64,000 nucleotides of DNA from Candidatus Hydrogenedentales bacterium. Its GTDB lineage: Bacteria; Hydrogenedentota; Hydrogenedentia; Hydrogenedentales; JAEUWI01. A program made the translations under genes and the position numbers. The stretch spans positions 5,996,284 to 6,060,283 of the forward strand of contig OW818658.1 in the NCBI GenBank assembly GCA_942492815.1. Direction: 5' to 3'. How positions within the stretch are numbered: position 1 is the first letter of the stretch; every line of letters starts with the position of its first letter. The notes beneath the pieces were generated by a model that was given only the letters and a program-made list of their open reading frames with translations, did no database searches and was not told the DNA's origin. This document shows, in pieces, positions 2,160 to 44,413 of the stretch.

Positions 2160-3215
2160 TGTCAAGACTTGACGTGAACGTCGAAATCGCCGAGCGGGAA
2201 GTCTCTTTTCTTCCCCGTCATCCCACCCATCCACCGGGACAGGCCCACGCATCAAACACACGCCGTCAATGGTAAACGGCTTTTGCCGTATCGAGTTTTT
2301 CGCGCTATCGGACGACACTTGGGCGCGGGTCCGTCCCCCAGGGGACGTACCGCCGCAGAGGCCCCATACCAAATCAGAAAGCACCCGAATCTGATGCCTG
2401 TTCCAACAGGGCGCAGCGCACTACAGCGCGGGGGCATGTCCCTGGGGATGTAACGCCGCGACGTGAACGACGAAGGTGTCGAGCAGGAAGTCTCTTTTCT
2501 TCCCCGTCATCTCACCCATCCACCGGGACAGGCCCACGCATCAAACACACGCCGTCAACGGTAAACGGCTTTTGCTGCATCGAGTTTTTCGCGCTATCGG
2601 ACGACACTTGAGCGCGTGTCCGTCCCCCAGGGGACGTACCGCCGCAGAGGCCCCATACCAAATCAGAAAGCACCCGAATCTGATGCCTGTTCCAACAGGG
2701 CGCAGCGCACCACAGCGCGGAGGCATGTCCCTGGGGATGTAACGTCGCGACGTGAACGTCGAAGTTGCCAAACGGGAAGTTACTTTTCTTCCCCGTCATC
2801 CCACCCATCCACCGGGACAGGCCCACGCATCAAACACACGCCGTCAATGGTAAGCGGCTTTTGTCGTATCGAGTTCTTCGCGTTATCGGACAACTCTTGA
2901 GCGCGGGTCCGTCCCCAGGGGACGTACCGCCGCAAGCGCACTGCGAGCAGGAAAAGTGAAACCTCAGACACTCTCGCCGCTTCTACGAACGCAGCGCACC
3001 ACAGCGCGGGGGCATGTCCCTGGGGATGTAACGCCGCGACGTGAACGTCGAAGGTGTCGAGCAGGAAGTCTCTTTTCTTCCCCGTCATCTCACCCATCTA
3101 CTGGGACAGGCCCACGCATCAAACACACGCCAGCAAAGGCAATCGGCTCCTGCCGTATTGAGTTATCGCGCTATCGGACGACACCGGGGCGCGGGTCCGT
3201 CCCTTCGGCCATCCT
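2160..3215. repeat. composite direct tandem repeat array B. Same family and orientation as array A, about 4 units. The last unit overlaps the 3' end of the GH5-like gene.
   Basis: The same modules recur: GACGTGAACGTCGAAG, CATCCACCGGGACAGGCCCACGCATCAAACACACGCCGTCAATGG and GGGGACGTACCGCCGC. The array ends ~3215, inside the GH5 gene's last ~11 codons. Confidence 0.9.
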
Positions 3216-4387
3216 CTTGTTCGCTTCCTGTAGCACCTTCAGATAGCCGCTGCGTGCGTTGGTCGCGGTCACGTTCATCGAGGACTCCTGCCAGGAAAAA
3301 TCAAATACCCAGTAGGCCGCGAGCTGAACCGGACTTGCTTCGATCGCCTCGAAGAGCTTCAGTCCCTCGGCCATGGCGGTCTCGGGGGTCCAGGGTACTT
3401 CGTTGTCCGGCGGTGCACCGAACTCACCCACGAAGAGGCCCTTGCCCGCACCGCGCGACACCTGGTAGGCCGCATCGAGGATCTTGCCGTAGGGCACACC
3501 GACCTCCCCGAAGCGCTTGCCTGTGGGCTCCGGATAGATGTGAATGGAGATGAGGTCGTTCGGGTCGGGCGTCATGAAGGCGAGGTTCCCCTGAAGCTCT
3601 TCCACGCTGTCCTGGCCCCAGCTCAACTCGGTGTGTTGGTGGTGGGCCGTGGGACGGGGAAGGCTGTGGCCCGTGGTAATGGGGCGGGCCGTGTCAATCT
3701 TTCGGATCTCCACCGCGAAGGCCGTCGTGGCCGCGCGAATGATCTCGGAAGTCAGATCATCGGCCGCGCTCCGCGATTCGGGCGAGCCGAGTGAAGGAAC
3801 GATGGGCGGGCGGTTGTCGGCCGCGTTGGGCAGATCCGCCGCAAGGGAGTACTCATTGCCGAATTCCCAGGCCCAGATGGCGGGCGAATTCACATAGCGC
3901 GAAACCACCTGCTGCACGTAGGTGCGCATGAAGGCCTGGGTCTTACTCTCGGGATCGCCCCACTTGCTCAGAGGCTCGCCGACAAGGTCCGGCACGCCCG
4001 CCGTCCACCAGAACAGCGAGGGAATGAGCCCCACGCCGGTCTCTTCGGCGGCCTTGACCACGCCGTCCATCAGCGCGAAATACTTGTCCGGGTCGGATTG
4101 ATACAGGGCCCAATTGATGGCATAGAAGCCGCCAAACTGCAAGCGCACGAAGGGAATGTCGTGGGCGGCCAGCGTCTCGAAGCCCGCCCGGTACGACGTG
4201 TCCTCCGGATTCTCCAGACAGCGCGAGAAGGCGTCCATATAGTTCACACCCAGGGCGCGGATGGGCTGGCCGTCTTTCAGAATCACGCCACCCTCACCAA
4301 TGCGCAAGCCGGGAATCTGCGACTCCTGGGCAACAACAGCGATGGAAACGGCGGCGGCGAGGAACGCCGCGAGGTATTTTAGCTGCA
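3171..4387 (-). CDS. secreted glycoside hydrolase, clan GH-A (GH5-like; cellulase/mannanase type)
   Basis: Signal peptide MQLKYLAAFLAAAVSIAVVAQ at the chosen start. WEFGNE catalytic-acid motif typical of clan GH-A. The ORF-track start at 4562 would run through the hairpin repeat, so the Met at 4387 was chosen. Confidence 0.7.
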
Positions 4388-4408
4388 TGGCTGATTGGGT
4401 GCTTTCTG

Positions 4409-4507
4409 GTACTACAGGGACATCAGAGACGACAGGGACTACAGATTGAGCTTGCGGCGGGCAACATCTATTTCCTGCCGTCTCTGTAGTCTCTGCCGTC
4501 CCTGCAA
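4409..4507. repeat. REPIN-like hairpin element, copy 1: two inverted arrays of 3-4 copies of the 9-mer NNCAGRGAC, separated by a ~25 nt spacer
   Basis: Left arm TACAGGGAC ATCAGAGAC GACAGGGAC TACAG. Right arm is the reverse complement of TGCAGGGAC GGCAGAGAC TACAGAGAC GGCAGG. Intergenic. Confidence 0.85.
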
Positions 4508-4533
4508 ACTCGAGGAACCAGCCTCGGTGTATT

Positions 4534-7500
4534 TTAGCTCCGCCGATAAAGCGGATCGGCACCCAGCGTACCTTTCAGGCTCTCGAGATAGTTTGGGTGC
4601 TCCAAGCGGTATAGCTCTGCCTTGGCCTCTGCGAGGCGTCCGACGATGTCGAGGCGTTCGGCCTCTTCGACGTAGTTGGGCTTCTCCAGGAACGCCGAGA
4701 GGTTCTTGATGTGCCGTTTCCACAGGGCGCAGTCGCGCTCCTGCTTGATTCGGAGGCGCTCATGATACCAGTCACTTTCCATCAGGTACTCGCGGGTGAA
4801 AAGCTTGCGAATTTCCGGGTCCTGCACCGACTTGCCCTCATAGTGACCATGCACCATGATGTGGAGGAGGGCCGCCAGGGGCGGGCAGGCCGCCGTGATG
4901 CTGCCGTCGTCGAAGAAGGCCTGGGCGCAGCGCTGCTGGGCCTCCGTGATATTTTTGATACCGTCCACGTAGGCGTCCATGTCCTGGAGCTCGGGCCGGA
5001 GCATTTCGTCGTTGAACACCGTCGAGGGACTGTCAAACACGCGGCCGAAGTAGTGGCTCAGGAAGGTGCGGGTCATGCGGTAACCCAGGCGGCTCGCCAG
5101 GATCGTCTCGCCCTGGTATTCGAAGTCATCCACTTTCTCGAAGCACCCTTCGCGGAGCAGGTGTGCGGGATCCCGCTCCACTTCGGAAAGGCGGCACCAC
5201 ACTTCGGGAATCAACAGGCTCACGTCGTGGTCCACGCGATACTTCGGGCCGATGTAGCCCGCCGCCGTGGTGAAGCTCTTGTATTCCGTCAGGATGTACG
5301 ACACCAGTGCGTTGTTCAGATCGCTGGTGGGCGTGAGGCAGTTGAAAGGCCCCTTGGTCAGGGCGCCTTCCGATCCCGCACCCGTGGTCGAGGGTGACTT
5401 GCCGGTCAAGCTGGCGATGAAGTCCATGAAGAGCTCCGGGAGCTCCTGGTGGTGAATCGGGTTGTAGACCGCCAGCGGGCGGATCCCGGCCTTCACGTCG
5501 GGCGGGTTATTCCGCCGGCCGGGCAGCACGGCATTCACCGGGTGTAGCACGGGCTTGTCCATGGGCACGCGGCGGTGAAGGCGCGTGGCCACTTCGCCGA
5601 TGTATTTGTCCCGCGGGTTGGTCAGATCGGGGCGCAACTGCAGATAGCGCGGGTTCTTCGACGGCGCGCCATCCACGATGCGCGGGTGTGCCGACGACAC
5701 GAAGTATTCTATATCGTCGCTGTCCGCCACGCGGTTGATCAAATCCTGCATCGGCTGGCTGTAGGCCTGGAAAGTGATCGTGTGCTGCTGTAGCTTCCGG
5801 GCGTCTTCGCGGGTCAGGGGCTCGAAGTTGGAGATGAAGTTCTCGTCTTCCGAGAGGTCCCGCTCCGTCTGTTTGTCGTGGCCCCGGTGGATCGCGTCGT
5901 CGGGACGCTGGAACAGGCGCATCTCGCAATTGTCCACGATCTTGACGCTCGGGTTCTTGTACTCCGGGCAGAGGTGCGAGAGGCTACTGGCCGGTACCAC
6001 CACCGACGCGGAGATATCGTCTTCTTTCTGAATCTTCGCCGCAGGCAGGAAATCCTGGCGCAGCTTGTAGGTGCGCCACGACCCGTCGCTCACCAGGCCC
6101 ACGCGCAGATAGCTCGCCACCAGCTTGCGGCCGTTGAACTTCAGCTCATGGCCCGGCTTGCCGTTGATCACGTCGGCGCTGAAATGGCTGCGCCAGTCCT
6201 CGCCCCACTCGGGGCGGTAGAAGCGCTTGATGATGAAGATCATCGCCTTCACATAGTCCGGGATCGTGTTGAGCCAGGCGTTGTACTCGGGCGTGTAGTC
6301 CTCTTCCGAGGGTGTCAGCAGCCGGATCACCGAACCCAGCGAACGGTTGGCCGCCAGCAGGGGACGGCCCTTGGATACGATGCGCTTGTCCTGGAAGCGA
6401 TCGCTGAAATGATGGGCCATGACCGCCTGAATGCGATTGAGATCTTCCTTGTAATCGGCCACGAAGAAGGGGCCGTAGTGCACGGCATCCAGCAGGGATT
6501 TCGAGATCTCGGACTTGCCGCCGCCCGACACGGTGCAGGGCTTGTGACAGAAGGTGCCTTCCACGCCCGTGCCCACCAGACGCCAGCTCGGGGCGCCGGG
6601 GTGCTTTTCCATGTGGACGTTGTAGCCGTCCGGGTTGAGGTACACGTAGCCCGGCCGCAGGGGGATTTCCTGCTCCACGCCGTCCCGCTCCCAATACACC
6701 CGCTGGGTATTGAGATCGATATGGACGTTCTCCGGCACGTAGATGACGTCCGGGTAAGCCCGGTCGACGGCATAGCCCTCGGGCTGTACCTCCATCAGCT
6801 CGCCATACTTGGCGACCATCTCGTCAAAGCCGTGGCCTTCCTTGGTATAGCGGAAGTCCATGAAGAATTTATCGCCCAGGTTGAAACGGGCGTAGGCCAG
6901 CGCACCGCCCGCGTGCTCTTCTTCGCAGTTGCCGTAGAGGTTCGCCGCATAACTGAGCTGGGTTTTCACTTCCTTCTTGCAGTAACCAAAATAGTTGTCC
7001 GCAATCAGCGTCACCATCACGCCCCGGTCGTCGCGGCAGGCAATCTTGAAGGCGTTGCCGTCGTTGTACAACTCGCCCTCGTCCTTCCAGCACATACCCT
7101 CCTTGCGCTGGCGCTCCGTGGCGTCGTCGAAGTAAGGAAGCCCCAGTTCCTTCTTGCGCAGGTGGGTCAGGTGTGGGGCCAGCACCACGCAGCCCGTGTG
7201 GCCCGTCCAGTGCTCCGCATCGAGGGCGGCATCATTTTCCGCCAGTGTCGGATCGCCCGCGTTGCCGAAAATGGTTTCCACGAAGTCGAGGTTGCTCACC
7301 AGGCTGCCCGGCACGAAGAACCGGGTCTCCATCGTCTTCGCGGGGAGCAGGCCCGGGATCTCGGCCGAGACCAGCGGCCGCATCATGAGCGACACCATCG
7401 TGTGGGCCTGATCGTCCTCTTCAGCGAGGAAGGGCAATTGGAGCAGGTCGCGCGGCGGGTTCAGCGCCGCCACCATCAGATTCCCGAAGACCCGCTTCGG

Positions 7501-8001: not shown

Positions 8002-8246
8002 GGTGAGTGTACTCCCCTGTCGTGTTAAGGGTTGTGCGGTGGTATGCGCGTTGGCGCTCGGGCCCCGGTTGCCGGCTATTGGGTGACCGACCGGGGTTAA
8101 AACAGCGGAAAAAGCCCGTCTGCCTGTGCCCGACCACAGGGATGGAGATGTCCCGGCAATCCTGTATCCTGAGGATCAGGAAGCTTCCCTATTCTAAAGG
8201 ATCGCGGGGGTCATAATCGACCCCGCGATCCCCGATTCAATGAAAA

Positions 8247-8284: not shown

Positions 8285-8298
8285 CTTAACTTCGGCGA

Positions 8299-10878: not shown

Positions 10879-11859
10879 CTACCAGCGGATGATCGCCGAG
10901 GCCCAGGTCAGGCCGCCACCAAAGGCCGCCAGCAGCACGGTGTCGCCTTCTTTGATCCGGCCTTCCTTGCGGGCCTCGTCGATGGCGATCGGGATGGATG
11001 CCGCGCTCGTGTTGGCCACCTTCATGACGTTGAGATAGATCTTATCGTCCGTCAGGCCCACGCGCTTTGCTGCGGAATCTATGATCCGCTTGTTCGCCTG
11101 GTGGGGGATGAAGAGGTCGATATCGTCGACCGTGAGACCAGTCTGCTCGAGCGCCACCTCAATGGCGTCGCCGAAGGCACCGATGGCGCGCTTGTACAGC
11201 TCGCGGCCGTTCATGCTCACGCCGCGCTCCACCGTGTTCACATTCTCAGGGGTGATGGGGGTGCGCGTGCCGCCGGAGGGCACGGAAAGAATATCGGCCG
11301 CGCTGCCGTCGGACCGGGTGTAGGTGGAGAGAATGCCGTGCTCGCCTTCGCTGGCGCGCAGCACCGCGGCCCCGGCACCGTCGCCGAAGAGTACCGCCGT
11401 GTCCCGCTTCTCCCAGTAGAGGTGGTCCGAAAGCTTTTCCGCGCCAATCACCAGAATGGTCTTGTGAACCCCGGCTCGGATCAGGGCGTCGGCATGCTGC
11501 AGCGCGTAGACAAAGCCCGAGCAGGCCGCGTTGAGATCGCTCGCACCGGCGCGGTTGGCACCCAGGTTGCTCTGGATAATGCAGGCGGAGGAGGGCATAT
11601 TATGATCGGGCGTAAGGGTGGCGCAGATGATATAGTCCACGTCTTCCGGCGCAACACCGCCGTCTTCAAGGGCCCGGCGTGCGGCCTCGGTTCCCAGATC
11701 GGACACGGCCTGTTCCGCCGAAGCGAAATACCGCTGTTCGATGCCGCTGCGCTGGCGGATCCACTCATCGGAAGTGTCCACGAACTTGGACAGATCGTCA
11801 TTGGTTACCAGCTTTTCCGGCAGGTAGTGCCCCGTGCCTACGATACGGGCATGTATCAT
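10879..11859 (-). CDS. fabH: 3-oxoacyl-[acyl-carrier-protein] synthase III (KAS III)
   Basis: 326 aa. Contains the active-site Cys region (NAACSGFVYAL), HQAN and AAFGGGLTWAS motifs. Full-length, classical FabH. Confidence 0.92.
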   Translation of the reverse strand: MIHARIVGTGHYLPEKLVTNDDLSKFVDTSDEWIRQRSGIEQRYFASAEQAVSDLGTEAARRALEDGGVAPEDVDYIICATLTPDHNMPSSACIIQSNLGANRAGASDLNAACSGFVYALQHADALIRAGVHKTILVIGAEKLSDHLYWEKRDTAVLFGDGAGAAVLRASEGEHGILSTYTRSDGSAADILSVPSGGTRTPITPENVNTVERGVSMNGRELYKRAIGAFGDAIEVALEQTGLTVDDIDLFIPHQANKRIIDSAAKRVGLTDDKIYLNVMKVANTSAASIPIAIDEARKEGRIKEGDTVLLAAFGGGLTWASAIIRW

Positions 11860-12178
11860 TGTAAAGCGTCTCCACGAACCTGATTGTTACCCCCGCATGG
11901 TGATCCAGATGCAGGTAAAGCGCCATAGGCGAGGAAACCGCTGCGGAAGGATGGGTAGGTCGCCGCTATTGTGTCATACCCAAGGCCCAAAAAGAAACTT
12001 TACGGCATTTTCGGACATGAAAAACCGCTTAAAACTTACCGCCCGGTAGGTACAAGTGGGACGCTTTTCGGCGACCCCTCCCCCCCAATCTCGCGCCGCA
12101 TTGATACCACCGCCTCCCGTCCTTTATCGTAGACTACAGATCGCTTTCTCGTGCGTGGCTGGCAGGCCCCCCGAGAAG

Positions 12179-12763
12179 ATGCGACGCTTCGACGCGACTT
12201 ACGGCACTCGCTTCGCCGCAGGAAAGGGACTGTCCACCGTGGAACAACTGCAATACCCCATCGGGCGCTTCGAAGCGCCCGTGCCTATCAACCTTCCCCA
12301 GGTCGCCCATTGGATCGAAGAAATCCGGACCCTGCCCGCGCGGCTCGAAGCCGCGGGGATCGGTCTGCAGGATCAGGATCTCGACACACCCTATCGCCCC
12401 GGCGGCTGGACCATCCGTCAGGTGGTACACCATCTGGCCGACAGTCACATGAATTCCTATATCCGCTTCAAACTCGCGCTCACGGAAGACAACCCCACGA
12501 TCAAACCGTACTTTGAAGATCGCTGGGCCGAGCTGCCCGACAGCGGCGGACCGATTGTCCACTCCCTCTCGCTAATCCACGCCCTGCACCGCAAATGGGT
12601 GCGCCTGATGTGGAGCCTTTCGGAAGATCAGCTCGCCCGTACCTTCCACCACCCCGAAGCGAACAAGGATTACCGGCTCGACTATGCCATCGGGCTCTAT
12701 GCGTGGCACGGAAATCACCACCTCGCCCATATTCTCTCGTTGCGGGAGCGCATGGGCTGGTAA
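12179..12763 (+). CDS. DinB/YfiT-family metal-dependent hydrolase/transferase; close match to bacillithiol S-transferase YfiT (BstA-like)
   Basis: DTPYRPGGWTIRQVVHHLADSHMNSYIRFKLALTE and LYAWHGNHHLAHI match the YfiT signature. Confidence 0.75.
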   Translation: MRRFDATYGTRFAAGKGLSTVEQLQYPIGRFEAPVPINLPQVAHWIEEIRTLPARLEAAGIGLQDQDLDTPYRPGGWTIRQVVHHLADSHMNSYIRFKLALTEDNPTIKPYFEDRWAELPDSGGPIVHSLSLIHALHRKWVRLMWSLSEDQLARTFHHPEANKDYRLDYAIGLYAWHGNHHLAHILSLRERMGW

Positions 12764-12787
12764 GGGATTGCAGGGACGTATCCAGCG

Positions 12788-12841
12788 CGAATGCCGGGTG
12801 CCACCTCAATCGAGCGACGCTCGTTTGGGTGCGTTGAGGGG
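12788..12841 (+). terminator. conserved gene-end motif: CGAATGCCSGGGTGCCACCTCAATC, then a GC hairpin, then GTTTGGGTGC
   Basis: Directly downstream of the YfiT stop. The same motif recurs at 22620 with a different but still palindromic hairpin sequence (covariation). T-rich tail. Confidence 0.4.
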
Positions 12842-13039
12842 CTTGGATCCGCATTCAACAACGAAGCTTTCAATCCGGCTTGTGGACCTCGGAAGGGTAA
12901 GGCGACTTGGACCCAAATCCATCAACCCATCCACAGGGACGGGCACGCGCGTTGACGGTCTCGCTGCGCGGTATAGACACCTGAAAACTACCGCAGAGCA
13001 TGTACACGGAAAAGCGGCGGGCGCGAGTCCGTCCCTTCC

Positions 13040-14419: not shown

Positions 14420-14455
14420 GGTTTTCTCCGTGGCGGCGCGACGGCCGCCGATTCT

Positions 14456-14516
14456 ATCGGACTGATCAGACTGATCGGACCGATCAGATCAGTCCAATCC
14501 GTCTGACCGGTCGGAT
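14456..14516. repeat. GATC-rich palindromic element (GATCAGAC(T/G)GATCGGACCGATC family), copy A; overlaps the stop of the downstream minus-strand gene
   Basis: ATCGGACTGATCAGACTGATCGGACCGATCAGATCAGTCCAATCCGTCTGACCGGTCGGAT. It encodes the C-terminal SDRSDGLD plus the stop of the 14489 gene. Confidence 0.85.
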
Positions 14517-16303
14517 AGGCTATATTGTTCTGGCACCACACCATCGCGCAGGCCGGCAAAGTATCCCGCCGCCGCCGCCATGGCTCCGCGACCGCATTCG
14601 CGCCCGATAGGACGGCTTGCCACGGTGTCTACCCGGGGGTGAACGCCACACATCAACCGCCCGAGCCCGCCATCGTCCGCGATATCCTGATAGGTCGCCC
14701 ATTGGAGGGTGACGGGTTCCGAAGGGGCCTCATCGAAAGGCAACTCCGTCACGATCCACTCCATCAAGCCGCCGGGCACGTAGACGTCCTCCGTATACGC
14801 CTCCATCACTTCCTTGAAGCTCCAGCCGAAGGCCGCATGTCCGGAAGTGTAACCCGGGAAAGGTGGCGTTACAAACGTCGGATGCTGATAGGGCATCCAG
14901 TCCTCCGGAAGCATCCAGCCCACGCCCGAATAGGGGCCACGCCACGCCTTGATCTTTACCCTGCCCACCTGCTCGCCCTCGGGCCCCGCGAGCGGGTCGT
15001 CCTCGCCGATTAACTCCACCACACCTTCGCGCAGGGGCAGTTGGTTGTACTGGCCGAGCCAGCGGATCGCTGTGATGGGGCGCACCCAGTCGTATTGGCG
15101 TTTCACGTCCCACACCGCGATCGCCGTGTCGTGCATGGCGCCGCCCAGTGCGAAGTAGAGCTTCACATCGTATTCGAGATCGTGATGCGCGGGCTTGTTG
15201 GCTGGTTGTGCGTTGACGAGGCCCCCGCCCGCCAGCACGTCGGTCGCGATCTCGAACCACCAGGGCCCCGGCATGTTGAAACGGTTCCCGTCGAGAAAGG
15301 CCGCCTGCGCCCGGTAGTAGTCGCCGCGCCGGACAAAGTTGTCGGCGTAGGCCTCGCCCGTGGCAGGATTCACGGGGTGCCCCGTGCCGTCGTCGGTGGG
15401 AAAAGGATTGTTTCCGCGAACACCCGGCGAGATGTTGATCAACTCGCTGCCCAGACCCTCGGCGGGATCGAGGGACGCGCTGTAGACCAGCACCTCCATA
15501 AAGTTGTCGACAAATTCCCCCATGGTGGCGCCGCCGAATTGAGGCGGCGCACCGGGGTCGATGCGGAGACCGGACTCGTCGTAGGGCGCGAGGGCGAAAG
15601 GCGTCACGAAACACCATTGGGGCGTGAGGAATGGTTGCACCTCGCCGTCCGGCATTCGGATAGGCTGCCAGGCATTGATATCCATGATGGCGGGCGTCCG
15701 GTAGTCCAGTTCCAGCGGCGGATTCACCGACTCGTAGCCACTGGTGTCCCTGTAGTCACCCGGTTCATTGGCCCCGTCGTCCTCGCAGAAATCCAGCACG
15801 ATCCGGGCAATTTTCGCGCCCAGCGCCTGCGCGGGGGATGGCCTGGGATTGCCCAGTTCGTCGAGATAGCCCAGCGTCCGCATGTGTACCCGAAAGGCGG
15901 CATAGGCCTCATAGCCCGATGTCCCCGGCGGGTCGTCCGCCAGCACCTTGAAACCCTCGCGCAGTACCGGGTACACCGCGTGACTCAGGGTCTCCGCGAC
16001 ATTCTCCAGGGTCTTCGGCCCGGCCTCGCCCTTCAGCCGCTTGCCGGTGAAATAGCCCGACGCCGTATCGTCGTAGACGGCCCAAGCCTCGTACATCGCC
16101 GCGCTCGCGTGCCACAGTTTGCGCGCCTCCACCGTGGGTCCCTGCGCCTCCGCACGCGTCGCTTCGAGCGCGAGACGCATCCAAGCCTGAGAGAGGTCGT
16201 TCAGCCGCGCCGCGCGCTCGACCCTGGGGCAGCCACTGAGGCCCGCCAGAAGCCCCAGGCCGATGCAGAGGACTCCGAGTCTGCGGGTAAGCGGGTATTG
16301 CAT
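14489..16303 (-). CDS. vanadium-dependent haloperoxidase / PAP2-superfamily-like lipoprotein
   Basis: PGYTSGHAAFGWSF and CGVHPRVD motifs are characteristic of vanadium haloperoxidase/acid phosphatase. Lipobox LAGLSGC. Start taken at MQYPL. Confidence 0.6.
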   Translation of the reverse strand: MQYPLTRRLGVLCIGLGLLAGLSGCPRVERAARLNDLSQAWMRLALEATRAEAQGPTVEARKLWHASAAMYEAWAVYDDTASGYFTGKRLKGEAGPKTLENVAETLSHAVYPVLREGFKVLADDPPGTSGYEAYAAFRVHMRTLGYLDELGNPRPSPAQALGAKIARIVLDFCEDDGANEPGDYRDTSGYESVNPPLELDYRTPAIMDINAWQPIRMPDGEVQPFLTPQWCFVTPFALAPYDESGLRIDPGAPPQFGGATMGEFVDNFMEVLVYSASLDPAEGLGSELINISPGVRGNNPFPTDDGTGHPVNPATGEAYADNFVRRGDYYRAQAAFLDGNRFNMPGPWWFEIATDVLAGGGLVNAQPANKPAHHDLEYDVKLYFALGGAMHDTAIAVWDVKRQYDWVRPITAIRWLGQYNQLPLREGVVELIGEDDPLAGPEGEQVGRVKIKAWRGPYSGVGWMLPEDWMPYQHPTFVTPPFPGYTSGHAAFGWSFKEVMEAYTEDVYVPGGLMEWIVTELPFDEAPSEPVTLQWATYQDIADDGGLGRLMCGVHPRVDTVASRPIGRECGRGAMAAAAGYFAGLRDGVVPEQYSLSDRSDGLD

Positions 16304-16400
16304 GTGTGGTCTCCTCGCCTTCGAAGCACCCGGCTTCAATCGAGGATACAATGTCGCGAGGGGGCCCATGGAGTCAAGAAGGAGACCGAATACGTCACGC

Positions 16401-21395: not shown

Positions 21396-21469
21396 CTTCC
21401 GTGCTTTTCCGTGAAATTCCGTGGTCAAAAATTTATTGACCACGGAAGGGCACGGAATTTCACGGAACG
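21396..21469. promoter_or_regulatory. long imperfect stem-loop with three direct TTCCGTG repeats and an inverted partner (CCGTGAAATTCCGTGGTCAA / TTGACCACGGAA...GGAATTTCACGG)
   Basis: Seen directly, 30 nt after the stop of the 17983-21366 gene and upstream of the small membrane-protein gene. Candidate terminator/attenuator or regulator-binding site. Confidence 0.45.
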
Positions 21470-27774: not shown

Positions 27775-27798
27775 CTATCAACTGTCAACTATCAACTG
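27770..27798. repeat. tandem heptamers CAACTAT/CAACTGT x4, overlapping the stop codon of the SpoU-family gene
   Basis: GTCAACTATCAACTGTCAACTATCAACTG. The minus-strand TGA stop of the 27785-28315 gene lies in the first heptamer. Confidence 0.85.
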
Positions 27799-28315
27799 CT
27801 TTCCTCTTCCCCAAGATATCATAGAGCACGATCCCGAAAGCATTGGCCACGTTGATGCTGTTCTTGTAGCCGTGCATGGGGATCTTCACCACGTGGTCAC
27901 AGCGGGCGATGTTGCGCTCGTGAATGCCGTTGACCTCGTTGCCGAAGACGATGGCCACGGGGCCGGGCCACTGAAAGTCGTGCATGTCTTCCGCGCCTTC
28001 GGCCACTTCGATGGCGACGATGGGAATGCCCTGTTCCTTCAGGGCGGCGAGGCAGTCCTTGGTGCGCTCGTAGTAGGTCCAGGGGACATAGGCGAAGGCG
28101 CCGAGGGCCGTCTTTTCCAGTTTTTTGTGGGGCGGGTGGGCCGACATGCCGCACAGGTGGATATGCGCCACGGCGCCCGCGTCGCAGGTACGAAAGATGG
28201 AGCCCACGTTGAAGGCGCTCCGAAGATTGTCGAGCACCACGTGGACCGGGTTGCGTGGGATGGGCGCGAGGTTGGCAATGTCGATATCGGCGTAATGGGG
28301 TTCCAGTTCGGCCAT
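27785..28315 (-). CDS. SpoU/TrmH-family RNA 2'-O-methyltransferase (SPOUT)
   Basis: 176 aa. Motifs VVLDNLRSAFNVGSIFRTCDAGAV, VAIVFGNEVNGI and NSINVANAFGIVLY are typical SPOUT motifs. Confidence 0.8.
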   Translation of the reverse strand: MAELEPHYADIDIANLAPIPRNPVHVVLDNLRSAFNVGSIFRTCDAGAVAHIHLCGMSAHPPHKKLEKTALGAFAYVPWTYYERTKDCLAALKEQGIPIVAIEVAEGAEDMHDFQWPGPVAIVFGNEVNGIHERNIARCDHVVKIPMHGYKNSINVANAFGIVLYDILGKRKAVDS

Positions 28316-28349: not shown

Positions 28350-28433
28350 TGTTACAGGGACAGCAGGGACGACAGGAATAAAACAGCCTGGGTCCCTGCC
28401 TGCCGTCTCTGCTGTCCCTGCTGTCCCTGCGGC
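28350..28433. repeat. REPIN-like NNCAGRGAC inverted-array hairpin, copy 2
   Basis: TTACAGGGACAGCAGGGACGACAGG ... CCTGCCGTCTCTGCTGTCCCTGCTGTCCCTGCGG. Confidence 0.85.
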
Positions 28434-28516
28434 TTCGCGCCAGTCACTCGCCACCTCCAAATAAAAACCGGCCTTCCCGCAGTGGAGAAGGCCGGTCGTA
28501 CATTCAAGAAATGGGC

Positions 28517-32594: not shown

Positions 32595-32600
32595 TCGCGG

Positions 32601-32676
32601 ATTAGTCCGCGGGCCAATCAGACTGATCAGACTGATCGGACCGTTCCGATCAGTCTGATCCGTCCGATCGGTCTGA
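32601..32676. repeat. GATC-rich palindromic element, copy B
   Basis: CCAATCAGACTGATCAGACTGATCGGACCGTTCCGATCAGTCTGATCCGTCCGATCGGTCTGAT. Confidence 0.85.
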
Positions 32677-32778
32677 TGGGCATCGCTGCCACTGTCGGCT
32701 TCTCGCGATATCCTTCCCTTTTTCGCTATACTGTCGGGCCATTGCACACCCCAACCACCCGCCCGAGGAGTTTTCCCC

Positions 32779-34476: not shown

Positions 34477-34683
34477 GGGACGGACCCGCTCAAAGGCCCT
34501 TTGGTCTGGCGGCACGATCAGTCACGCCCATCAAAGTCACGCCAGAACGAAACACGCTACAGCGCGCGGGCCTGTCCTCAACGGGATCAGTGGAAGGGAC
34601 CGAGTGCAAGTCCGGCCTTTTTCGACAGACTGCAACTTTCAAATTCGGACGTAGAGCAGGCTCAATTTTGACTTTCAACTCAC

Positions 34684-35193
34684 TTGCGTGGAGATCGCGT
34701 TATGTTGCCGGAATCACTCGATGACATGGTTGCAATTGCGGCTGCCAAACTCACCCTGGGCCAACTTTCAGGCGAAGAAGTACACGCCGTCGCGATGAAT
34801 GCACTTCTGACTGGCATCGATTGCGAAGAAGTTCTTGTGTTGGTTGATATGAGAAAACCTTTCGCATTTGACTTGGAAGAACTTTTCATTCGATTGATCG
34901 ACAAGCTTGGAGTCAAGCTTCCAAACGTTCAAGAGGCTACTCTTCGCGTTGCCAGAGAAGTCGCCACCCGGATAATATCGGGGAGTGTAACTCCCTATGA
35001 TGGGGCGCGCCATATTTGGTGGAAGTTGGCCAACTTAGAAGGATGCGATCAACGCTTGAACGTATTCGTCGGCTTGGCAAGTGAGATTGAAGACTGTATA
35101 TCGGAAGAAACTCGCGCAGAATATGTGCTCGATATAGTGCGGGAGGCGAGGGCGCTCTTGGTAGAGGATTCCCGCTCGCTTGGAGCATCATAA
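34684..35193 (+). CDS. hypothetical protein in a low-GC (~47%) islet
   Basis: 169-aa ORF. GC is markedly below the ~65% flanks. No recognizable domain. The start may be the Met at 34702. Confidence 0.5.
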   Translation: MRGDRVMLPESLDDMVAIAAAKLTLGQLSGEEVHAVAMNALLTGIDCEEVLVLVDMRKPFAFDLEELFIRLIDKLGVKLPNVQEATLRVAREVATRIISGSVTPYDGARHIWWKLANLEGCDQRLNVFVGLASEIEDCISEETRAEYVLDIVREARALLVEDSRSLGAS

Positions 35194-35299
35194 ACCTCTT
35201 TGCCTGCGAAGACGCATTGGGAGATCGCCCCGACGGCCTGATACTAATCATGGGCGCGACGGCGGACCGGCAACAGACTGTACTTGCGCCGCAATAATT

Positions 35300-35599
35300 T
35301 CAGTTTGGCCGTAAGACCTCGGTAATTGGATGAACAATGATGGAGTCCGCCCGCTTTCGCACAAGGCTCAGGTCGTAGTTCATCTGAAGACGCAACCAAC
35401 CATCGGCAGTGCCCCAGCCCATCTTTTCGAGCCGCACAGACATCTCGGGAGATATCCCTGACTTCTCGTTGAGCAGGTTGTTTAATGTTTGTCTTGCCAC
35501 CCCCAGGGCTTTGGCACCATCGGACACGGTAATCCCCAAGGGTTCGAGACAATTGACTCGCACGTGCCGTCCCGGATGCGGTGGGTTCTTCATTGGCAT
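35300..35599 (-). CDS. higA: HigA-family antitoxin (XRE-type HTH)
   Basis: MPMKNPPHPGRHVRVNCLEPLGITVSDGAKALGVARQTLNNLLNEKSGISPEMSVRL matches the HigA consensus (HNPPHPGE...LGV.RQ.L..LLNG...IS.EMA.RL). Confidence 0.85.
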   Translation of the reverse strand: MPMKNPPHPGRHVRVNCLEPLGITVSDGAKALGVARQTLNNLLNEKSGISPEMSVRLEKMGWGTADGWLRLQMNYDLSLVRKRADSIIVHPITEVLRPN

Positions 35600-35613
35600 A
35601 TTCTGCGACTCCC

Positions 35614-35892
35614 TTAGTGATAATCCACAAGATCGATTTCCAAGGCAAGGCCGACCTCGAATCGAAAAACGATGCGCCAGTTTCCAGAAACAATAACGGC
35701 GTACTGACCACGACGGCTACCGCGCAACTCGTGCAGTCGATAGCCAGGTTGTCGCATGTGCTCGATCGTATCTGCGGCGTCTAAATCGGCAAGAATCAAC
35801 TCAATCCTGGCCAGCAGGTTAGGGTTGACCTTACTGACATCACCGTGTTCGTAGAGGCGCTTCAGCCCCTTGTGTTTGAAGCTACCGACCAT
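35614..35892 (-). CDS. higB: HigB toxin (RelE/ParE superfamily mRNA interferase)
   Basis: FKHKGLKRLYEHGDVSKVNPNLLARIE...HELRGSRRGQYAVIVSGNWRIVFRF...VDYH matches HigB. Immediately upstream of higA. Confidence 0.85.
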   Translation of the reverse strand: MVGSFKHKGLKRLYEHGDVSKVNPNLLARIELILADLDAADTIEHMRQPGYRLHELRGSRRGQYAVIVSGNWRIVFRFEVGLALEIDLVDYH

Positions 35893-35935
35893 GTTTTAGT
35901 TTACCATAGACAATTGTCACTTGTCAGATCGACTC

Positions 35936-36000
35936 ATAAAAAATCCGGCGCGGCCGGTCACAGAGGTCCCGTAAGACCTTTTCGACCCGCCGCGCCGGTC
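35936..36000 (-). terminator. Rho-independent terminator of hcp (CCGGCGCGGC / GCCGCGCCGG stem followed by a T-run on the minus strand)
   Basis: Hairpin 20 nt after the hcp stop, followed by ATTTTTT on the minus strand. Confidence 0.6.
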
Positions 36001-37328: not shown

Positions 37329-37537
37329 AAATCCGGTCCTTTTTCCTGTCGCCCCGAGGGGTCGTTAAAGATGTATTTGTGATCTATGTTACACCTCTTT
37401 TCAGGATTTTGCAAGCGGTATGCTTAACAAACGCACGCGGCGTGGGCAGGTGGCGGGCACTACGATGGGACTGCTCTGGAAATAAGCGGTCACGACGCGA
37501 AGAGGTATGTGATGACTACCGTCAACGCTGGAACTTA

Positions 37538-37577
37538 CCCCCCCTCCCCCCCCGCAAGCGGGGGGGGTAGGGGGGGT
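37538..37577. repeat. G/C homopolymer palindrome C6TC9-GCAAGC-G8TAG7 (hairpin / G-quadruplex-prone) in the hcp upstream region
   Basis: Seen directly: CCCCCCTCCCCCCCCCGCAAGCGGGGGGGGTAGGGGGGG. Confidence 0.9.
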
Positions 37578-37738
37578 AAAGCTCGGATATGACTTCCACC
37601 CTCTATGGGTGACGCGAAGCGTCATGAATGACTGTCCAGAAAAGGCGGCGGTGAAGAGCGGGATTGGCGCTGAAAGGTAGTCAACCGCAAGGAGGTGGAC
37701 GTAGGCGGGTGGGCGGGACTGTCCCACGCTGTTAAAGT

Positions 37739-38240
37739 CGCGGGACAGTCCCGAATGGCACTAACTTAAGGGCAATGCCTGGATGCTTCAACGGGTAACC
37801 TGGGGTGCCACCCTCAAACGCAATCGCGTAGCGATGAAGTTTGTGGGTGTTGGGATTTCACCGTGTGACACGATTTTCTTTGAAAATTGGAGCCTCTTCA
37901 CCCACAAGTCGCGACCGCCGGTGGCGGGGGTTCGAGAAAGAAAACGCCGGGCTGTAGTCTTCAGGCTGTAGGAAGTTGTGTTCGGCTATTGAGTGAACTG
38001 TGTTTGGTTAAAGTCACCTCACCCACAAAGTTCCCCCGCTTCGCTCCTCCCTTTGAGGGTGGCACCCGCAGGGCCCTAAGGGGATCTGGGTGGGGCTTGG
38101 GTCGGTTGAAGTCCGGTGTTTTCTTAGCAGCAGCTCCCCCGCTGCGCTCCTCTGCTTGAGGGTGGCACCCGCCATTAACTTCGAAAAGCTTAGAGCGCCT
38201 TTCTCTTATGTTAGTGCCATTCGGGACAGTCCCGAACGCG
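37739..38240. mobile_element. MITE-like non-autonomous element, ~500 bp, with ~28-bp terminal inverted repeats (CGCGGGACAGTCCCGAATGGCACTAAC / GTTAGTGCCATTCGGGACAGTCCCGAACGCG) and an inner inverted repeat (GGGGTGCCACCCTCAA / TTGAGGGTGGCACCC); no ORF
   Basis: Terminal inverted repeats seen directly. The GGGACNGTCCC palindromic core is shared with the tandem array at 57.1-57.8 kb. Additional GGGAC(A/T)GTCCC copies flank it at 37711 and 38309. Confidence 0.6.
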
Positions 38241-38325
38241 CAGGAGGCCGCGGCGCTCCAGAAAGTTCATGCGGCACGCATTCGCAATGCGTACTCCAGG
38301 TGCCTTGGCGTTCAGGACAGTCCCG

Positions 38326-39960
38326 TCACTTCTCGATGTAGAAATCCTGAAAGCGGTGGTAGCCCAGCAGATTGGGAACATAACCCTTCACTTCCGGGGC
38401 TTGGAGGTACTTCCGGGTGTAAAAGTAAATCGGGACGATGGGTAGATCCTCCAGCACGATGTCTTCGGCCTGCTTCAGCAAAGCAAAGCGCTTGGCGGTG
38501 TCGGGCTCGGCGTAGGCCTGCTGGATGAGGGCGTCGTAGGCCGGGTTGGCGTAGCCGGTGCGGTTATTGCCGCCATCGGTGAGCCACATCTCCAGGAAGT
38601 TCATGGGGTCCATCACATCGCCGATCCAGGCGGCGCGGGCGAGGTCGTAGTCCAAGCTGTTGGTGCTGTCGAGGTAGACCTTCCAATCCTGATTCAACAG
38701 TCGCACTTCCAGGCCGAGATTCTTCCGCCACATCTGCTGCATGACTTCGGCAATCTTCTTGTGCTGCTCGGAGGTGTTGTAGAGAATCTCCACGGGTGGC
38801 AGACCTTTGCCGTCGGGGAAGCCGGCCTCGGCCAGGAGCGCCTTGGCTTTTTCCGGATTGAACTCCAGGCGGGGCGTCCCCTCATAGCCCGGAATGCCCG
38901 GGGGCACATAGCTCGCTGCCGGCGTCTGCCCGCCCTTGGTCACGTTGCGGGCAAGTTCCTCTCGATCCGTCGCCAGCGACAAAGCCTGGCGCACGCGCTT
39001 GTCGTTGAAGGGTGGGCGCGTGGTGTTGAGGCGATAGAAATAGACGCCCAGGTAGGGATCGATATGGATGAGTCCCGGATCTTTCTCCCGATACTCCGCG
39101 ATTTTGTGCTCGGGGACGTCGCCGGTCAACTGGATCTTGCCGGAACGGAAACTACGTTCTTCGGTGCTCAGATCGTCGATGGGATAGAACTCGATACCAT
39201 CGAGCCGGACCTTGTCGCGCTCCCAATAGTGATCGTTGCGCGCGACCCGGATGATTTCATTCGGACTCCACTCCGTAAGGCGGAAGGGGCCGTTGCTCAC
39301 GTGATTCCCGCCCCGTGTCCACGGCGTACCCCGTTCATCCATTCGTCCGTAGGCCTCGATGGTGGCCTGATGCACGGGAAACCACGCCTGGTGAATCTGC
39401 ATGGCGAGCAGGTACGGCGTGGGGTATTCCAGCGTAAGTTCCAGCGTGTGATCGTCGATAGCCTTCGCGCCCACCTCGTCAATATTCGTTATCGTGCCCT
39501 GATTGAAGCCTTTCGCATTCTTGAGGCAGAAGAGCAGGTAGGCGTAGTCCGCCGCCAGTGCCGGGCTCAGCATGCGCTTGTAGCTGTAGATAAAATCCTT
39601 CGCCGTCACCGGATCGCCGTTAGACCACTTGCCATCAGCCCGCAATTTGAAGGTGTAGACCCGTTTGTCCTCCGAAATGGTCCACGACTCCGCCGCTGCC
39701 GGTAAGGGATCAAAGGTTGCCGGATCGACCCCGGTGAGTCCGTCAAACAACGAGGCCAGCACGCGATGTTCCGGCACGCCCGTCACCAGATGGGGGTCGA
39801 GATCTTTCACTTCGGCGTTGATGTTAATCCTGAGCACCTTCGCCGATTCCGTCGCCGAACCGGACTCCCCGCCCTGTACATCTTCTTTCGGAGAGCCGCC
39901 GCACCCCGCCAGAAGCAGTGTTGCGACGCCGATTACGGTATAAACGGAAAACTTGCGCAC
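38326..39960 (-). CDS. ABC transporter substrate-binding lipoprotein, family 5 (oligopeptide/dipeptide-binding, OppA/DppA-like)
   Basis: Lipobox LLLAGCGG. SBP_bac_5 architecture. GTG start preceded by AGGAA chosen. The repeat motif GGACAGTCCCGTCA abuts the stop codon. Confidence 0.8.
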   Translation of the reverse strand: MRKFSVYTVIGVATLLLAGCGGSPKEDVQGGESGSATESAKVLRININAEVKDLDPHLVTGVPEHRVLASLFDGLTGVDPATFDPLPAAAESWTISEDKRVYTFKLRADGKWSNGDPVTAKDFIYSYKRMLSPALAADYAYLLFCLKNAKGFNQGTITNIDEVGAKAIDDHTLELTLEYPTPYLLAMQIHQAWFPVHQATIEAYGRMDERGTPWTRGGNHVSNGPFRLTEWSPNEIIRVARNDHYWERDKVRLDGIEFYPIDDLSTEERSFRSGKIQLTGDVPEHKIAEYREKDPGLIHIDPYLGVYFYRLNTTRPPFNDKRVRQALSLATDREELARNVTKGGQTPAASYVPPGIPGYEGTPRLEFNPEKAKALLAEAGFPDGKGLPPVEILYNTSEQHKKIAEVMQQMWRKNLGLEVRLLNQDWKVYLDSTNSLDYDLARAAWIGDVMDPMNFLEMWLTDGGNNRTGYANPAYDALIQQAYAEPDTAKRFALLKQAEDIVLEDLPIVPIYFYTRKYLQAPEVKGYVPNLLGYHRFQDFYIEK

Positions 39961-40076
39961 AGGGAAATTCCTTCCTGGTTTATGCAAAAACTCACGGTTG
40001 CTTCTGGGCACGGGGGCCATGTGCCGCGCCAAGTATTATAAATGTATTCGCGGCTGGGGTTAAAACCGTATCGGCC

Positions 40077-41042: not shown

Positions 41043-41511
41043 GGCTGTTTCCCTTTCTGTTCGCTTAGCGAAGCGACGCCACCATAGTACCCCACACGCC
41101 ACGGAATGGAAAATGACCTGGCGACCAAACCACGCCGTTGCTCCTTGCATCCTGATTCACAAAAAAAAGACCTGTCACCACGAAGGCACGAAGTTCACGA
41201 AGAAAAACGGGAAGTCGGACGTTTACCCACGCTTGGCATGCCGTCTTTCGAATGATCTCTGCACGCAAAGGCGCAAAGATATTGGGGACGTCGGTTCAAT
41301 ACGTTTTGCCTGACTTACCGGGTAGAATCGCGGCTGCGAAATGTTTCCTTCTCCCTTTTTTCTTCGTGCTCTTCGCGCGTTTCGTGGTGAAAGTTCTGGT
41401 TGCGGCCCGAGGCCGCTTCAATTACCTCGTGGTGGGGTTTCCCGGCCCCGCGTTGCCCCGTCGCGCCGCGCTCCATTACAATAGCGGTCTTCGCAGTCCC
41501 GAAAGGCCCCC

Positions 41512-42168: not shown

Positions 42169-42179
42169 AAGGTCTGCCC

Positions 42180-42887: not shown

Positions 42888-42906
42888 AAAGCGAGCGCGT
42901 TCCCTC

Positions 42907-43533: not shown

Positions 43534-43599
43534 GAATTTGTTCCTTCCCGGAAAAAAAATTTCTGGCCGCCTCGGGCGGCGTTGCGAACTATACGCGCT

Positions 43600-43903
43600 T
43601 CAACAGCGGCCTTCAATGAAATTGTAAGATGTTGCAATTAAAGGTGTTGCAAAAACTAAATCAATTTTTTTACTTTTGAGACCGCCGATGAGCCTGTAAA
43701 ATAAGGGCGATTTCGCACCCAAAAAAATTTTAGCATTGAAAATAGGGCTTGACAAATCATTATTTAGACGTTAATCAATACACCATTGCTGAAGGCGCTT
43801 CCGGTAGTTGCGCGCAGCACCGGAGAGAGCATACGTCTGTCGCGTATCTTGGGCCGGCGCCGACAGCTTCCAAGACCAATTCGATTTCAAAGGAGAAACG
43901 ACC
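43600..43903 (+). promoter_or_regulatory. AT-rich promoter/leader region of the HU-like gene, with a TTGACA -35-like hexamer at ~43749 and two TTGCAA direct repeats at ~43633-43655
   Basis: Local GC drops sharply. AGGAG ribosome-binding site 8 nt upstream of the ATG. The -10 element is not convincing. Confidence 0.35.
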
Positions 43904-44224
43904 ATGACCATTAAGAAAGCCAAGCCGACCGACAAGGCCCTCACGAAGTCCAAAGTGATCGAAGCCCTGGCCGAAGAAACCCAGCTTTCGAAGAAAGACG
44001 TCGGTACTGTCCTCGCGGCGCTGACCGAGCTGTCCTACGCGCAGGCCGCCGTGGGTTTCACCATCCCCGGCCTCGGCAAGCTGGTCGTCCAGCAGCGCAA
44101 GGCGCGCAAGGGCCGCAACCCGAAGACGGGCGAGACCATCAAGATCGCTGCCAAGAAGGTGCTCAAGTTCCGCATCGCCAAGGCCGCGAAAGACGCGATC
44201 ACGCCCGCCAAGGAAAAGAAATAA
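43904..44224 (+). CDS. HU/IHF-family DNA-binding protein with a Lys-rich N-terminal extension
   Basis: VIEALAEETQLSKKDVGTVLAALTE...GFTIPGLGKLVVQQRKARKGRNPKTGETIKIAAKKVLKF is a classical HU fold sequence. Confidence 0.85.
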   Translation: MTIKKAKPTDKALTKSKVIEALAEETQLSKKDVGTVLAALTELSYAQAAVGFTIPGLGKLVVQQRKARKGRNPKTGETIKIAAKKVLKFRIAKAAKDAITPAKEKK

Positions 44225-44248
44225 CCAATACCGCACAATTGCGGCGCT

Positions 44249-44290
44249 GACCCGGCCCGGTCTTCACTTCGGTGAGGCCGGGCTTTTTAA
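44249..44290 (+). terminator. Rho-independent terminator of the HU-like gene
   Basis: CCCGGCC...GGCCGGG stem followed by CTTTTT. Confidence 0.6.
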
Positions 44291-44413
44291 TTGACAATGT
44301 ACAATTGACAATGAAAAGACTGAGCAACCTGCCAGCCAGAGATTTTCCGCCCGATTCTCATTGTCAATTGTCAATTGTCAATTGTCAATTGTCAATTGTC
44401 AATTGTCCATTGT
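44289..44413. repeat. heptamer repeat element: AATTGACAATGTACAATTGACAATG, then a 45-nt spacer, then (CAATTGT)x7 in inverted orientation. The tandem part overlaps the 3' end of the TolC-family gene.
   Basis: Seen directly. The tandem heptamers encode the C-terminal ...NNGQLTIDN of the 44385-45803 gene. Confidence 0.9.

Follow-up and report, generated by a model that had tools for sequence, protein, structure and literature searches.

The 64-kb window considered here (64,000 nucleotides; contig OW818658.1 of assembly GCA_942492815.1, positions 5,996,284 to 6,060,283) derives from a Candidatus Hydrogenedentales bacterium and contains several protein-coding genes whose 3' ends coincide with small palindromic or tandem repeats. 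Its GC content is approximately 61%, and approximately 40 genes were called in it by third-position GC content (GC3). Homolog searches identify Candidatus Hydrogenedentes-like metagenome genomes as the nearest sources of homologs for its proteins. Four of the approximately 40 genes end inside a repeat, and in approximately 11 a repeat begins within 10 nt of the stop codon or upstream of it. A preliminary description, made from the window alone, held that five genes run into repeats and terminate there. This stands for the GH5, VHPO-like, TolC and SpoU genes and falls for a substrate-binding protein gene, while a sixth gene, for a PEP-utilising enzyme, carries a repeat in frame. The six genes, called by GC3 and with identities confirmed by Pfam, are the following.

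3171-4562, minus strand: GH5 cellulase-family gene
14489-16369, minus strand: VHPO-like gene (DUF6851/VCPO-type)
25312-27774, minus strand: PEP-utilising enzyme gene
27785-28315, minus strand: SpoU gene
38326-40032, minus strand: substrate-binding protein gene (SBP_bac_5)
44385-45803, minus strand: TolC/OEP gene

The true start of the GH5 gene is probably the ATG at 4388, ahead of a signal peptide, which would place the gene at 3171-4388 (minus strand). When these proteins are aligned with their orthologs, distant homology ends where the repeat begins in GH5, VHPO-like, TolC and SpoU. Taking a tail as repeat-derived where homology stops at the repeat and the stop codon lies within it, these four genes qualify and the substrate-binding protein gene does not. 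The observation is thus largely real, and the mechanism first proposed for it, recent insertion, is only partly right. Instead, the gene ends within repeats very probably arose by differing routes, one by stop loss and several as old overlaps shared among relatives.

The clearest case is the VHPO-like gene, which ends in a hairpin made of inverted tandem 9-mers of the ATCAGACTG (“GATC”) type.

14489-14524, minus strand: VHPO-like read-through tail (TAT, 10 codons, TGA)

The last 11 codons (YSLSDRSDGLD) and the TGA correspond to one arm and the loop of the hairpin at 14447-14529, as had been noted. In the closest ortholog, P0207 (87% identity, syntenic locus L008), the gene ends ...CCG GAA CAA TAA, and a matching 9-mer hairpin is already present 4 nt past this TAA. 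The window reads ...CCA GAA CAA TAT AGC CTA TCC GAC CGG TCA GAC GGA TTG GAC TGA, so that the TAT codon at 14522-14524 takes the place of the TAA, with the altered base at 14522. VHPO orthologs at 77-87% identity all end without the tail, and the VHPO locus L009 has no hairpin. Because the hairpin already lies downstream of the TAA in L008 and a single base change has turned TAA into TAT, the tail is not an insertion; comparison of the loci identifies it as stop loss with read-through into a pre-existing hairpin. The preliminary proposal, that each tail reflects recent insertion of a mobile repeat at a gene 3' end, with the native stop displaced and the short tail tolerated, is therefore refuted for this gene, and as a general account it is unlikely.

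A more skeptical reading would put the VHPO extension down to an error of base calling or assembly, and the other overlaps to fuzzy repeat borders. The extension does rest on the single base 14522, and the overlap at the substrate-binding protein gene proved to be a border effect. Against this, the GH5, TolC and SpoU overlaps are seen again in independent assemblies, and the translated arm of the VHPO hairpin carries three further substitutions relative to L008, which alone rule out nothing. Such an artefact is very improbable as an explanation of the whole. In the relative L035 (94%), the spacer between the VHPO and sulfatase genes (L035 90-290) holds another palindromic element, with arms GTTCCCAGGCTCCGCCTGGGAATGCAGTCTCCGGAGC... 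and ...CGGAGACTGCATTCCCAAGCGGAGC, and the intact GATC hairpin of the window is absent from it. Repeat content has therefore been swapped at one site between close relatives.

The GH5 gene reads into the terminus of a repeat array of a different family, composed of GGGAC elements.

2171-3206, no strand: array B, 3.6 tandem 289-nt units, each made of two ~105-120-nt GGGAC...GTCCC elements
3171-3206, minus strand: GH5 tail EGTDPRPGVVR plus TAG (11 codons and stop), read from the last-unit terminus of array B, GGGACGGACCCGCGC, and adjoining bases

The open reading frame (ORF) passes through GGGACGGACCCGCGC, the terminal inverted repeat that closes array B, and its coding strand ends ...AAG AGG ATG GCC GAA GGG ACG GAC CCG CGC CCC GGT GTC GTC CGA TAG. 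Within this end, GAAGGGACGGACCCGCGCCC is the element terminus that also closes array units, and it recurs by the sulfatase stop (13019-13038, 19/20 bases; family D16). Tandem Repeats Finder (TRF) sets the end of array B at 3203, while a 20-mer repeated at 770, 2321 and 13019 extends to 3206. The overlap is accordingly real, although it spans 3171-3206 and not, as first described, 3171-3215. GH5 orthologs of at most 68% identity end in ...ANRRM followed by 3-10 unrelated residues, and all relatives of at least 78% identity carry an in-frame G(T/A/N)(D/G)(P/L)R, followed by varied continuations and stops. The terminus is present inside the GH5 end in the DNA of three syntenic relatives, L035 (94%), L004 (90%, GCA_016791475.1) and L005 (78%); in L035, which has a single unit, the outer arm adjoins the TAG of the convergent cNMP-binding-like gene. 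Since the tail is common to relatives of at least 78% identity, the overlap is old. The element terminus would have occupied the coding end since the ancestor of these relatives, replacing an older tail; recent insertion thus finds here only an older counterpart.

The remaining two tails are read from tandem heptamers.

44360-44413: heptamer array ATTGTCA, 7.7 copies, of which 44385-44413 encode the TolC tail
44283-44317: opposing heptamer arm, whose pairing with 44355-44413 gives a long hairpin in the spacer of the convergent TolC and HU genes
27767-27798: heptamer array TCAACTG/TCAACTA, whose first units (27785-27798) encode the SpoU tail

The TolC tail NGQLTIDN (approximately 8 codons) and its TGA are read from ACAATGG ACAATTG ACAATTG ACAATTGA, which bears out the earlier observation that this gene reads into heptamers. 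Its orthologs at 82-97% identity have heptamer-coded tails as well (QWTMDN, QLKMDN, QLTMIN), and remoter orthologs part from them past ...ASLQRAxGGD, where their tails range from 1 to more than 40 residues. Both L001 and L033 share the layout of the window (TolC end, heptamer arm, spacer, complementary arm, HU terminator); their arms are shorter or variant, and the hairpin potential is kept (z = -2.3 and -4.3). In L032, by comparison, the TolC ortholog (77%) takes its tail AVEPAVD and stop from a tandem repeat of another kind, the 9-mer GTGGACNNN, and folding predicts no significant hairpin at this TolC end. Judged from these orthologs, the TolC end has long been embedded in short-unit arrays, and these arrays are turning over.

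The SpoU overlap, also as first described, is real, small and, by ortholog comparison, old. Its tail comprises the three codons VDS and a TGA in the second heptamer unit (27785-27798). The window, L012 and L013 proteins all end in K(A/T)VDS plus TGA, with 3 array units in L012 and L013 versus more than 4 in the window. Against solved SpoU/TrmH structures and 150 diverse representatives, homology stops at residues 167-172 of 176. As the GH5, TolC and SpoU tails are shared down to 78-84% identity, they are old, copy number alone varying, and this counts against recent insertion in all three. Between the SpoU heptamers and a conserved GTG, which is probably the true start of the PEP-enzyme gene, lies a tandem 9-mer, TCGACCCAT (window 27712-27739, L012 9955-10000, L013 ~750-775). 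Its copy number is approximately 3 in the window, 5 in L012 and 2 in L013, and a similar 9-mer is found at ~52540-52575.

Read in the direction of the gene, the heptamers hold TGA or TAG. As 7 and 3 share no factor, each frame meets a stop within three heptamer units, and an ORF that enters such an array therefore ends within a few codons. The TolC and SpoU ORFs would thus end in arrays that are shared with relatives and drift in copy number, the stop being reached once any stop-less unit is passed. In the window and eight relatives, which together gave 103 long ORFs, a tandem 7- or 9-nt run crosses the stop only in the TolC and SpoU orthologs, and none of 515 internal control codons is crossed by such a run. 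The direction of this process could also be the reverse, in that heptamer and 9-mer arrays may have grown in place by replication slippage, seeded by the terminal sequence and stop of the gene. Unit variants are locus-specific (ACAATTG at TolC, YAGTTGA at SpoU), copy number varies among close relatives, and the other 9-mer array encoding the tail of the 77% TolC ortholog (GTGGACNNN) fits as well. Set against this are a near-identical heptamer (TCAATTG/TCCATTG) at 59516-59545, away from gene ends, and the complementary arm approximately 45 nt from the TolC array, which simple slippage from a gene end does not explain. Outgrowth of this kind is doubtful as a general origin of the tails.

The heptamer units also hold TTGACA or TTGATA, which resemble -35 hexamers (44289-44413, 27767-27798, 59516-59556). 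At 59516-59556 a TATAAT comes next, 6 nt ahead of the ATG of the following gene. Heptamer arrays may therefore carry promoter-like signals as well.

The substrate-binding protein gene was the fifth that had been said to end in a repeat, and here the claim does not hold. Its stop lies at 38326-38328, and the GGGAC element starts 1 nt past the TGA, leaving an overlap of at most 2-3 nt.

38222-38325: GGGAC element, single copy, termini GGGACAGTCCCGAACGC and GCGTTCAGGACAGTCCC

The L031 ortholog (93%), which has no element, shows the identical ...DFYIEK, TGA and next two bases (CG), and only then an unrelated spacer of ~190 nt with an ordinary terminator. With the same C-terminus and TGA in a repeat-free relative, the stop is ancestral. 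The preliminary description had itself named such an ortholog as grounds for rejecting its proposal, and L031 supplies one, so that recent insertion is refuted for this gene too. What the window has gained is an ~880-nt repeat fill (~37450-38325) that starts 1 nt past the stop, is absent in L031 and has the element at 38222-38325 as its first part; the window and L031 are homologous again from the promoter region of the following gene onward. A 38/46 match between L031 and the window 3' of the stop consists mostly of the shared gene end, and the rest was judged to be chance. The fill combines GGGAC elements with two GAGGGTGGCACCCGC-type copies and a poly-G/C palindrome (~37540-37580), and stands where L031 (2869-2955) has ~60 nt with a hairpin-plus-T-run terminator. 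No equivalent of the L031 terminator was recognised in 37450-38325 of the window.

In the PEP-utilising enzyme a REP-like (repetitive extragenic palindromic) doublet lies in frame, as originally described.

~25953-26141, minus strand: in-frame palindromic block of the PEP-enzyme gene, with REP-like arms at 26005-26031 and 26062-26088

This doublet, which forms a fourth repeat family, is a 27-nt inverted pair, GTCATTCCCGCGAAAGCGGGAATCCAG and CTGGATTCCCGCATGCGCGGGAATGAC, 93% complementary and with a fold z of -5.9. Alignment with L012, L013 and two distant homologs places the block in a variable linker between the ATP-grasp and mobile domains. L012 has 45 nt where the window has 189 nt, so that the block adds a net 144 nt, or 48 codons. 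Its presence in L013 and absence in L012 are among the points that favor recent insertion, and show that the in-frame block is polymorphic among relatives.

Sites filled in the window and empty in relatives also allow the borders of the repeats to be examined. Three such comparisons are available: the substrate-binding protein gene versus L031, the sulfatase/DinB pair versus L004 and L035, and the PEP enzyme versus L012. The search for target-site duplications at repeat borders, which the preliminary description had suggested, yielded none in these three comparisons, the duplications being a feature expected of miniature transposable elements with inverted repeats (MITEs), and at all three sites sequence has been replaced rather than cleanly inserted. 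This argues further against recent insertion as the general mechanism. In its favor are the arrays with their RAYT-like gene (below) and the 276-nt and ~880-nt fills, all absent in L035, L004, L005 or L031, and the GH5 tail, which fits an older insertion that replaced an ancestral tail. Active repeat movement is thus upheld in part: comparison of L035, L004, L005 and L031 with the window points to high repeat turnover in this lineage, for which the evidence is the absence of the 289-nt arrays, the 276-nt fill and the ~880-nt fill from close relatives, and yet none of the four tails is demonstrably a recent insertion. The expectation that such events could be dated by ortholog comparison was sound.

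Repeats also lie immediately beside stop codons without entering the gene. GGGAC-element termini are found 0-5 nt from the stop at six window genes.

Gene 1-501: element at stop, TAG followed directly by GGACGTACC
DinB-like gene, 12056-12763: element at stop
Sulfatase gene: element at stop, TAG GGAA GGGAC
Arginyl-tRNA synthetase gene: element at stop, TAG followed directly by GGGACGGACC
Substrate-binding protein gene: element at stop
TauE-like gene: element at stop, TAA GC GGGAC
34477-34577: complete GGGAC element, beginning at the first base after the arginyl-tRNA synthetase TAG
12764-13039, no strand: repeat fill of 276 nt that takes up the spacer of the convergent DinB-like and sulfatase genes and adjoins the stop of each

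In L004 the junction at the PEPCK-like gene is TAG followed directly by GGACGGACG, and a 32-nt inverted repeat, 84% complementary (11200-11231 and 11334-11365), has arms that start exactly at two convergent TAG stops. An 18-mer, TAGCAGCCCGTTGCAAAA, was found solely at these two arms among all fetched loci. A strict GGGACNKNCC scan of the relatives gave few copies owing to degenerate termini, and added nothing to the sample of elements abutting stops. The junctions (TAG/GGAC, TAG/GGGAC, TAA/GGGA, TGA C/GGGAC and TAA GC/GGGAC) are few, and neither TA, GTAG nor a stop-like sequence emerged from them as a consistent target motif.

Crowding offers a simple cause for the flush placement at the sulfatase/DinB pair. 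The spacer measures 6, 18 and 46 nt in L004, L035 and L005, respectively, versus 276 nt of repeats in the window, and any insert in so small a spacer touches both stops. For the sulfatase gene, three relatives have TGA as the stop where the window has TAG, a difference that makes it possible, by comparison of these stops, that the element supplied this TAG. It is likewise possible that the elements prefer such targets, or that hairpins at the stop are selected for. REP sequences of Escherichia coli near stop codons have been reported to tune expression or mRNA stability, and hairpins here could similarly be selected at or over stops, such that a terminating ribosome meeting a stable stem would tune expression or mRNA stability. 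The six GGGAC termini at 0-5 nt from stops, the L004 inverted repeat at both convergent stops and the hairpin potential kept at the TolC site in L001 and L033 speak for such coupling, and crowding does not explain the flush repeat at the substrate-binding protein gene, where the repeat-free L031 spacer is ~190 nt. Conversely, the ancestral spacers of 6-46 nt already account for the sulfatase/DinB pair, and L032 and L005 lack a hairpin at the corresponding sites. Selection of this kind is, on present evidence, quite unlikely to be the general cause.

The most prominent repeats of the window enclose a putative transposase gene.

501-1487, no strand: array A, 289-nt unit family, periods of 289 and 185 nt
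1504-2130, minus strand: RAYT-like Y1 (IS200-like) transposase gene, with array A on one side and array B on the other

The first base of array A is also the final base of the TAG with which the cNMP-binding-like gene 1-501 (plus strand) ends. The ORF at 1504-2130 matches the Y1/HUH IS200-like family PF01797 (E = 1.5e-14, 54.6 bits versus a cut-off of 23), and among NCBIfam models it scores best with NF047646, REP-associated tyrosine transposase (RAYT), at 64.5 bits over the whole model length and below the curated cut-off of 80 bits; the IS200 NCBIfam model gives 19.6 bits only. HUH-like (NHIHIV) and Tyr (SYVELNPVRAG) motifs were spotted by eye in the translation. A Y1 transposase amid arrays of palindromic elements is the known signature of REP/REPIN-RAYT systems, and arrays of GGGAC elements, its putative cognate REPs, lie on both sides of the gene. 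The window therefore likely holds a RAYT/REPIN system. At the corresponding site L035, L004 and L005 have a 151-234-nt spacer with one repeat unit or element and no transposase gene, the L035 copy being one full 289-nt-type unit. The amplification to 2.7 kb of arrays enclosing the RAYT-like gene is specific to the window lineage, with the proviso that arrays may have collapsed in the assemblies of the relatives.

As a family, the GGGAC elements measure ~105-120 nt and carry the terminal inverted repeats expected of MITEs, GGGAC(N)5CC..CGC at both ends (GGGAC...GTCCC). The motif GGGACNKNCC occurs 58 times in the window versus 8.7 expected, and paired elements form the 289-nt unit that is tandemly amplified in arrays A and B. 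A second family consists of hairpins made of inverted tandem 9-mers, and tandem heptamers form another. Copies of these families, besides the GGGAC copies already given, include the following.

12922-13039: GGGAC element, single copy
From 63355: GGGAC element, single copy
14447-14529, 32608-32690, 46657-46681 and 59443-59516: 9-mer hairpins, ATCAGACTG type
4406-4507, 28355-28432, 50927-51001, 54626-54735 and 58725-58820: 9-mer hairpins, CAGGGACNN type
21397-21467 and 41179-41386: further 9-mer hairpin types
27767-27798, 44283-44317 with 44360-44413, and 59516-59545: tandem heptamers

When folded against shuffled sequence, five of seven distinct elements gave z = -3.2 to -7.4, including both folded copies of the GATC-type hairpin and the GGGAC element beside the substrate-binding protein gene (z = -3.2). 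These hairpins are not themselves intrinsic terminators, as no T run directly follows the 9-mer, heptamer or GGGAC hairpins; ordinary T-run terminators adjoin some of them, for example at 44240-44285 and 28450-28500. A 231-nt unit related to the 289-nt unit is present in three tandem copies at 57030-57723, with CGGGAC(C/G)GTCCCG-type palindromes, downstream of the gene at 55924-57045 and past that gene's own terminator.

Elsewhere in the window, Rfam and tRNA scans gave no matches. A low-GC stretch (34600-36000, GC 0.55) holds a HigB/HigA-like toxin-antitoxin pair (~35614-35895 and ~35300-35716, minus strand), and positions 61375-62024 (plus strand) hold a VapB/VapC-like pair that shows a PIN-domain motif, both recognised from translations only. 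Two adjacent paralogs of 382 aa each (46747-47895 and 47931-49079, minus strand) share ~77-82% nucleotide identity over 1 kb; their L001 orthologs are weak or faint matches to Pfam AF_1845, and their L033 orthologs match BNR_2.

Taken together, the preferred reading is one of several routes to a common arrangement. The intergenic spacers of this genome, mostly those at gene 3' ends, host several palindromic families, namely REPIN-like GGGAC elements, 9-mer hairpins, tandem heptamers and the REP-like doublet. Ancestral 3' spacers in this clade appear to have been very short (6-50 nt), and the affected C-terminal tails lie outside conserved domains, so that repeats come to sit flush with stops or across them. 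The change from TAA to TAT let translation of the VHPO-like gene run 11 codons into an existing hairpin, and the stop of the substrate-binding protein gene is ancestral.

Several points weigh against this reading. The sample comprises only one 64-kb window and approximately ten partial loci of relatives, and the relatives are metagenome assemblies, in which tandem arrays can collapse. The VHPO extension hinges on base 14522, where a sequencing error is possible. For the heptamer arrays, invasion of a gene end and outgrowth from it are both compatible with the data, and two Y-type GGGAC copies fold no better than shuffled sequence (z = -0.9 and +0.5). As to the RAYT assignment, beyond the sub-threshold model score, the protein matches no PDB sequence at E <= 0.01 (the search at E up to 10 gave a single unrelated chance match, E = 0.82), and its single-sequence AlphaFold model, at a pLDDT (predicted local distance difference test) score of 38, is unusable.

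Comparable arrangements are known from other bacteria. In Coxiella burnetii, functional genes share 1-50 bp at their 3' ends with the elements QMITE1 and QMITE2, which contribute residues or just the stop, and the extension of enhC came about when an indel joined the ORF to an element already present (PMC5896051). The window is similar in that small palindromic elements overlap gene 3' ends and give C-terminal residues, the stop or both, and the VHPO stop loss parallels the enhC extension. It differs in phylum, in its unrelated element sequences and in having several repeat classes, tandem heptamers included, with most overlaps old by ortholog comparison. The likeness to REP/REPIN-RAYT systems lies in the Y1 gene with RAYT as best NCBIfam model, in putative cognate palindrome arrays on both sides and in dispersed extragenic copies of ~100-120 nt with inverted termini. 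By contrast, the RAYT score is below its cut-off, and the flanking repeats form tandem arrays of 289-nt units; the RAYT-like gene is also missing from the corresponding site of the 94% relative L035.

Rickettsia palindromic elements (RPE) are inserted in frame into genes. The PEP-enzyme palindrome resembles them, being in frame in a variable linker, present in one close relative and absent in another, although it is a single case in this window and unrelated in sequence. The short tandemly repeated repetitive (STRR) sequences of cyanobacteria are tandem heptanucleotides that are intergenic, often downstream of genes and sometimes endowed with hairpin potential. The heptanucleotide arrays of the window share all of these traits, but they belong to another phylum, and their units (ACAATTG, YAGTTGA) differ from the STRR consensus types, such that they do not qualify as members. 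They further differ in their inverted arm pairs, their 9-mer versions and their extension into coding ends. No paper on such repeats in Hydrogenedentes came up in a literature search. Most unusual in the window are its short-unit inverted arrays and the arrays that flank the RAYT-like gene.

It is conceivable, though a long shot, that the inverted arrays of 7- and 9-nt units are 3'-end hairpin elements of a class of their own, able to renew themselves in place. The TolC site is kept across relatives while unit and copy number change, with heptamers in most and an unrelated 9-mer in L032, and the two arms of short-unit arrays tend to remain complementary. The stop that each frame meets within three sense-oriented heptamer units points the same way. 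If so, these arrays could act as translation stops of a built-in, fail-safe kind, coupled to a hairpin in RNA or DNA, and could supply gene ends steadily with new C-terminal tails.

As overlap between gene ends and repeats has already been documented in other bacteria, no open question is resolved by these findings. Their value is that of a worked example of the routes from an intergenic palindrome to a protein C-terminus, namely stop loss, old insertion and array drift, in which each event can be dated by ortholog comparison. When proteins of this clade are annotated, tails such as GTDPR..., SDRSDG... and QLTIDN are to be read as derived from repeats and not as functional motifs. The window also brings to light a likely RAYT/REPIN system, together with short-unit hairpin arrays of an unusual kind, in a candidate phylum that has been little studied.

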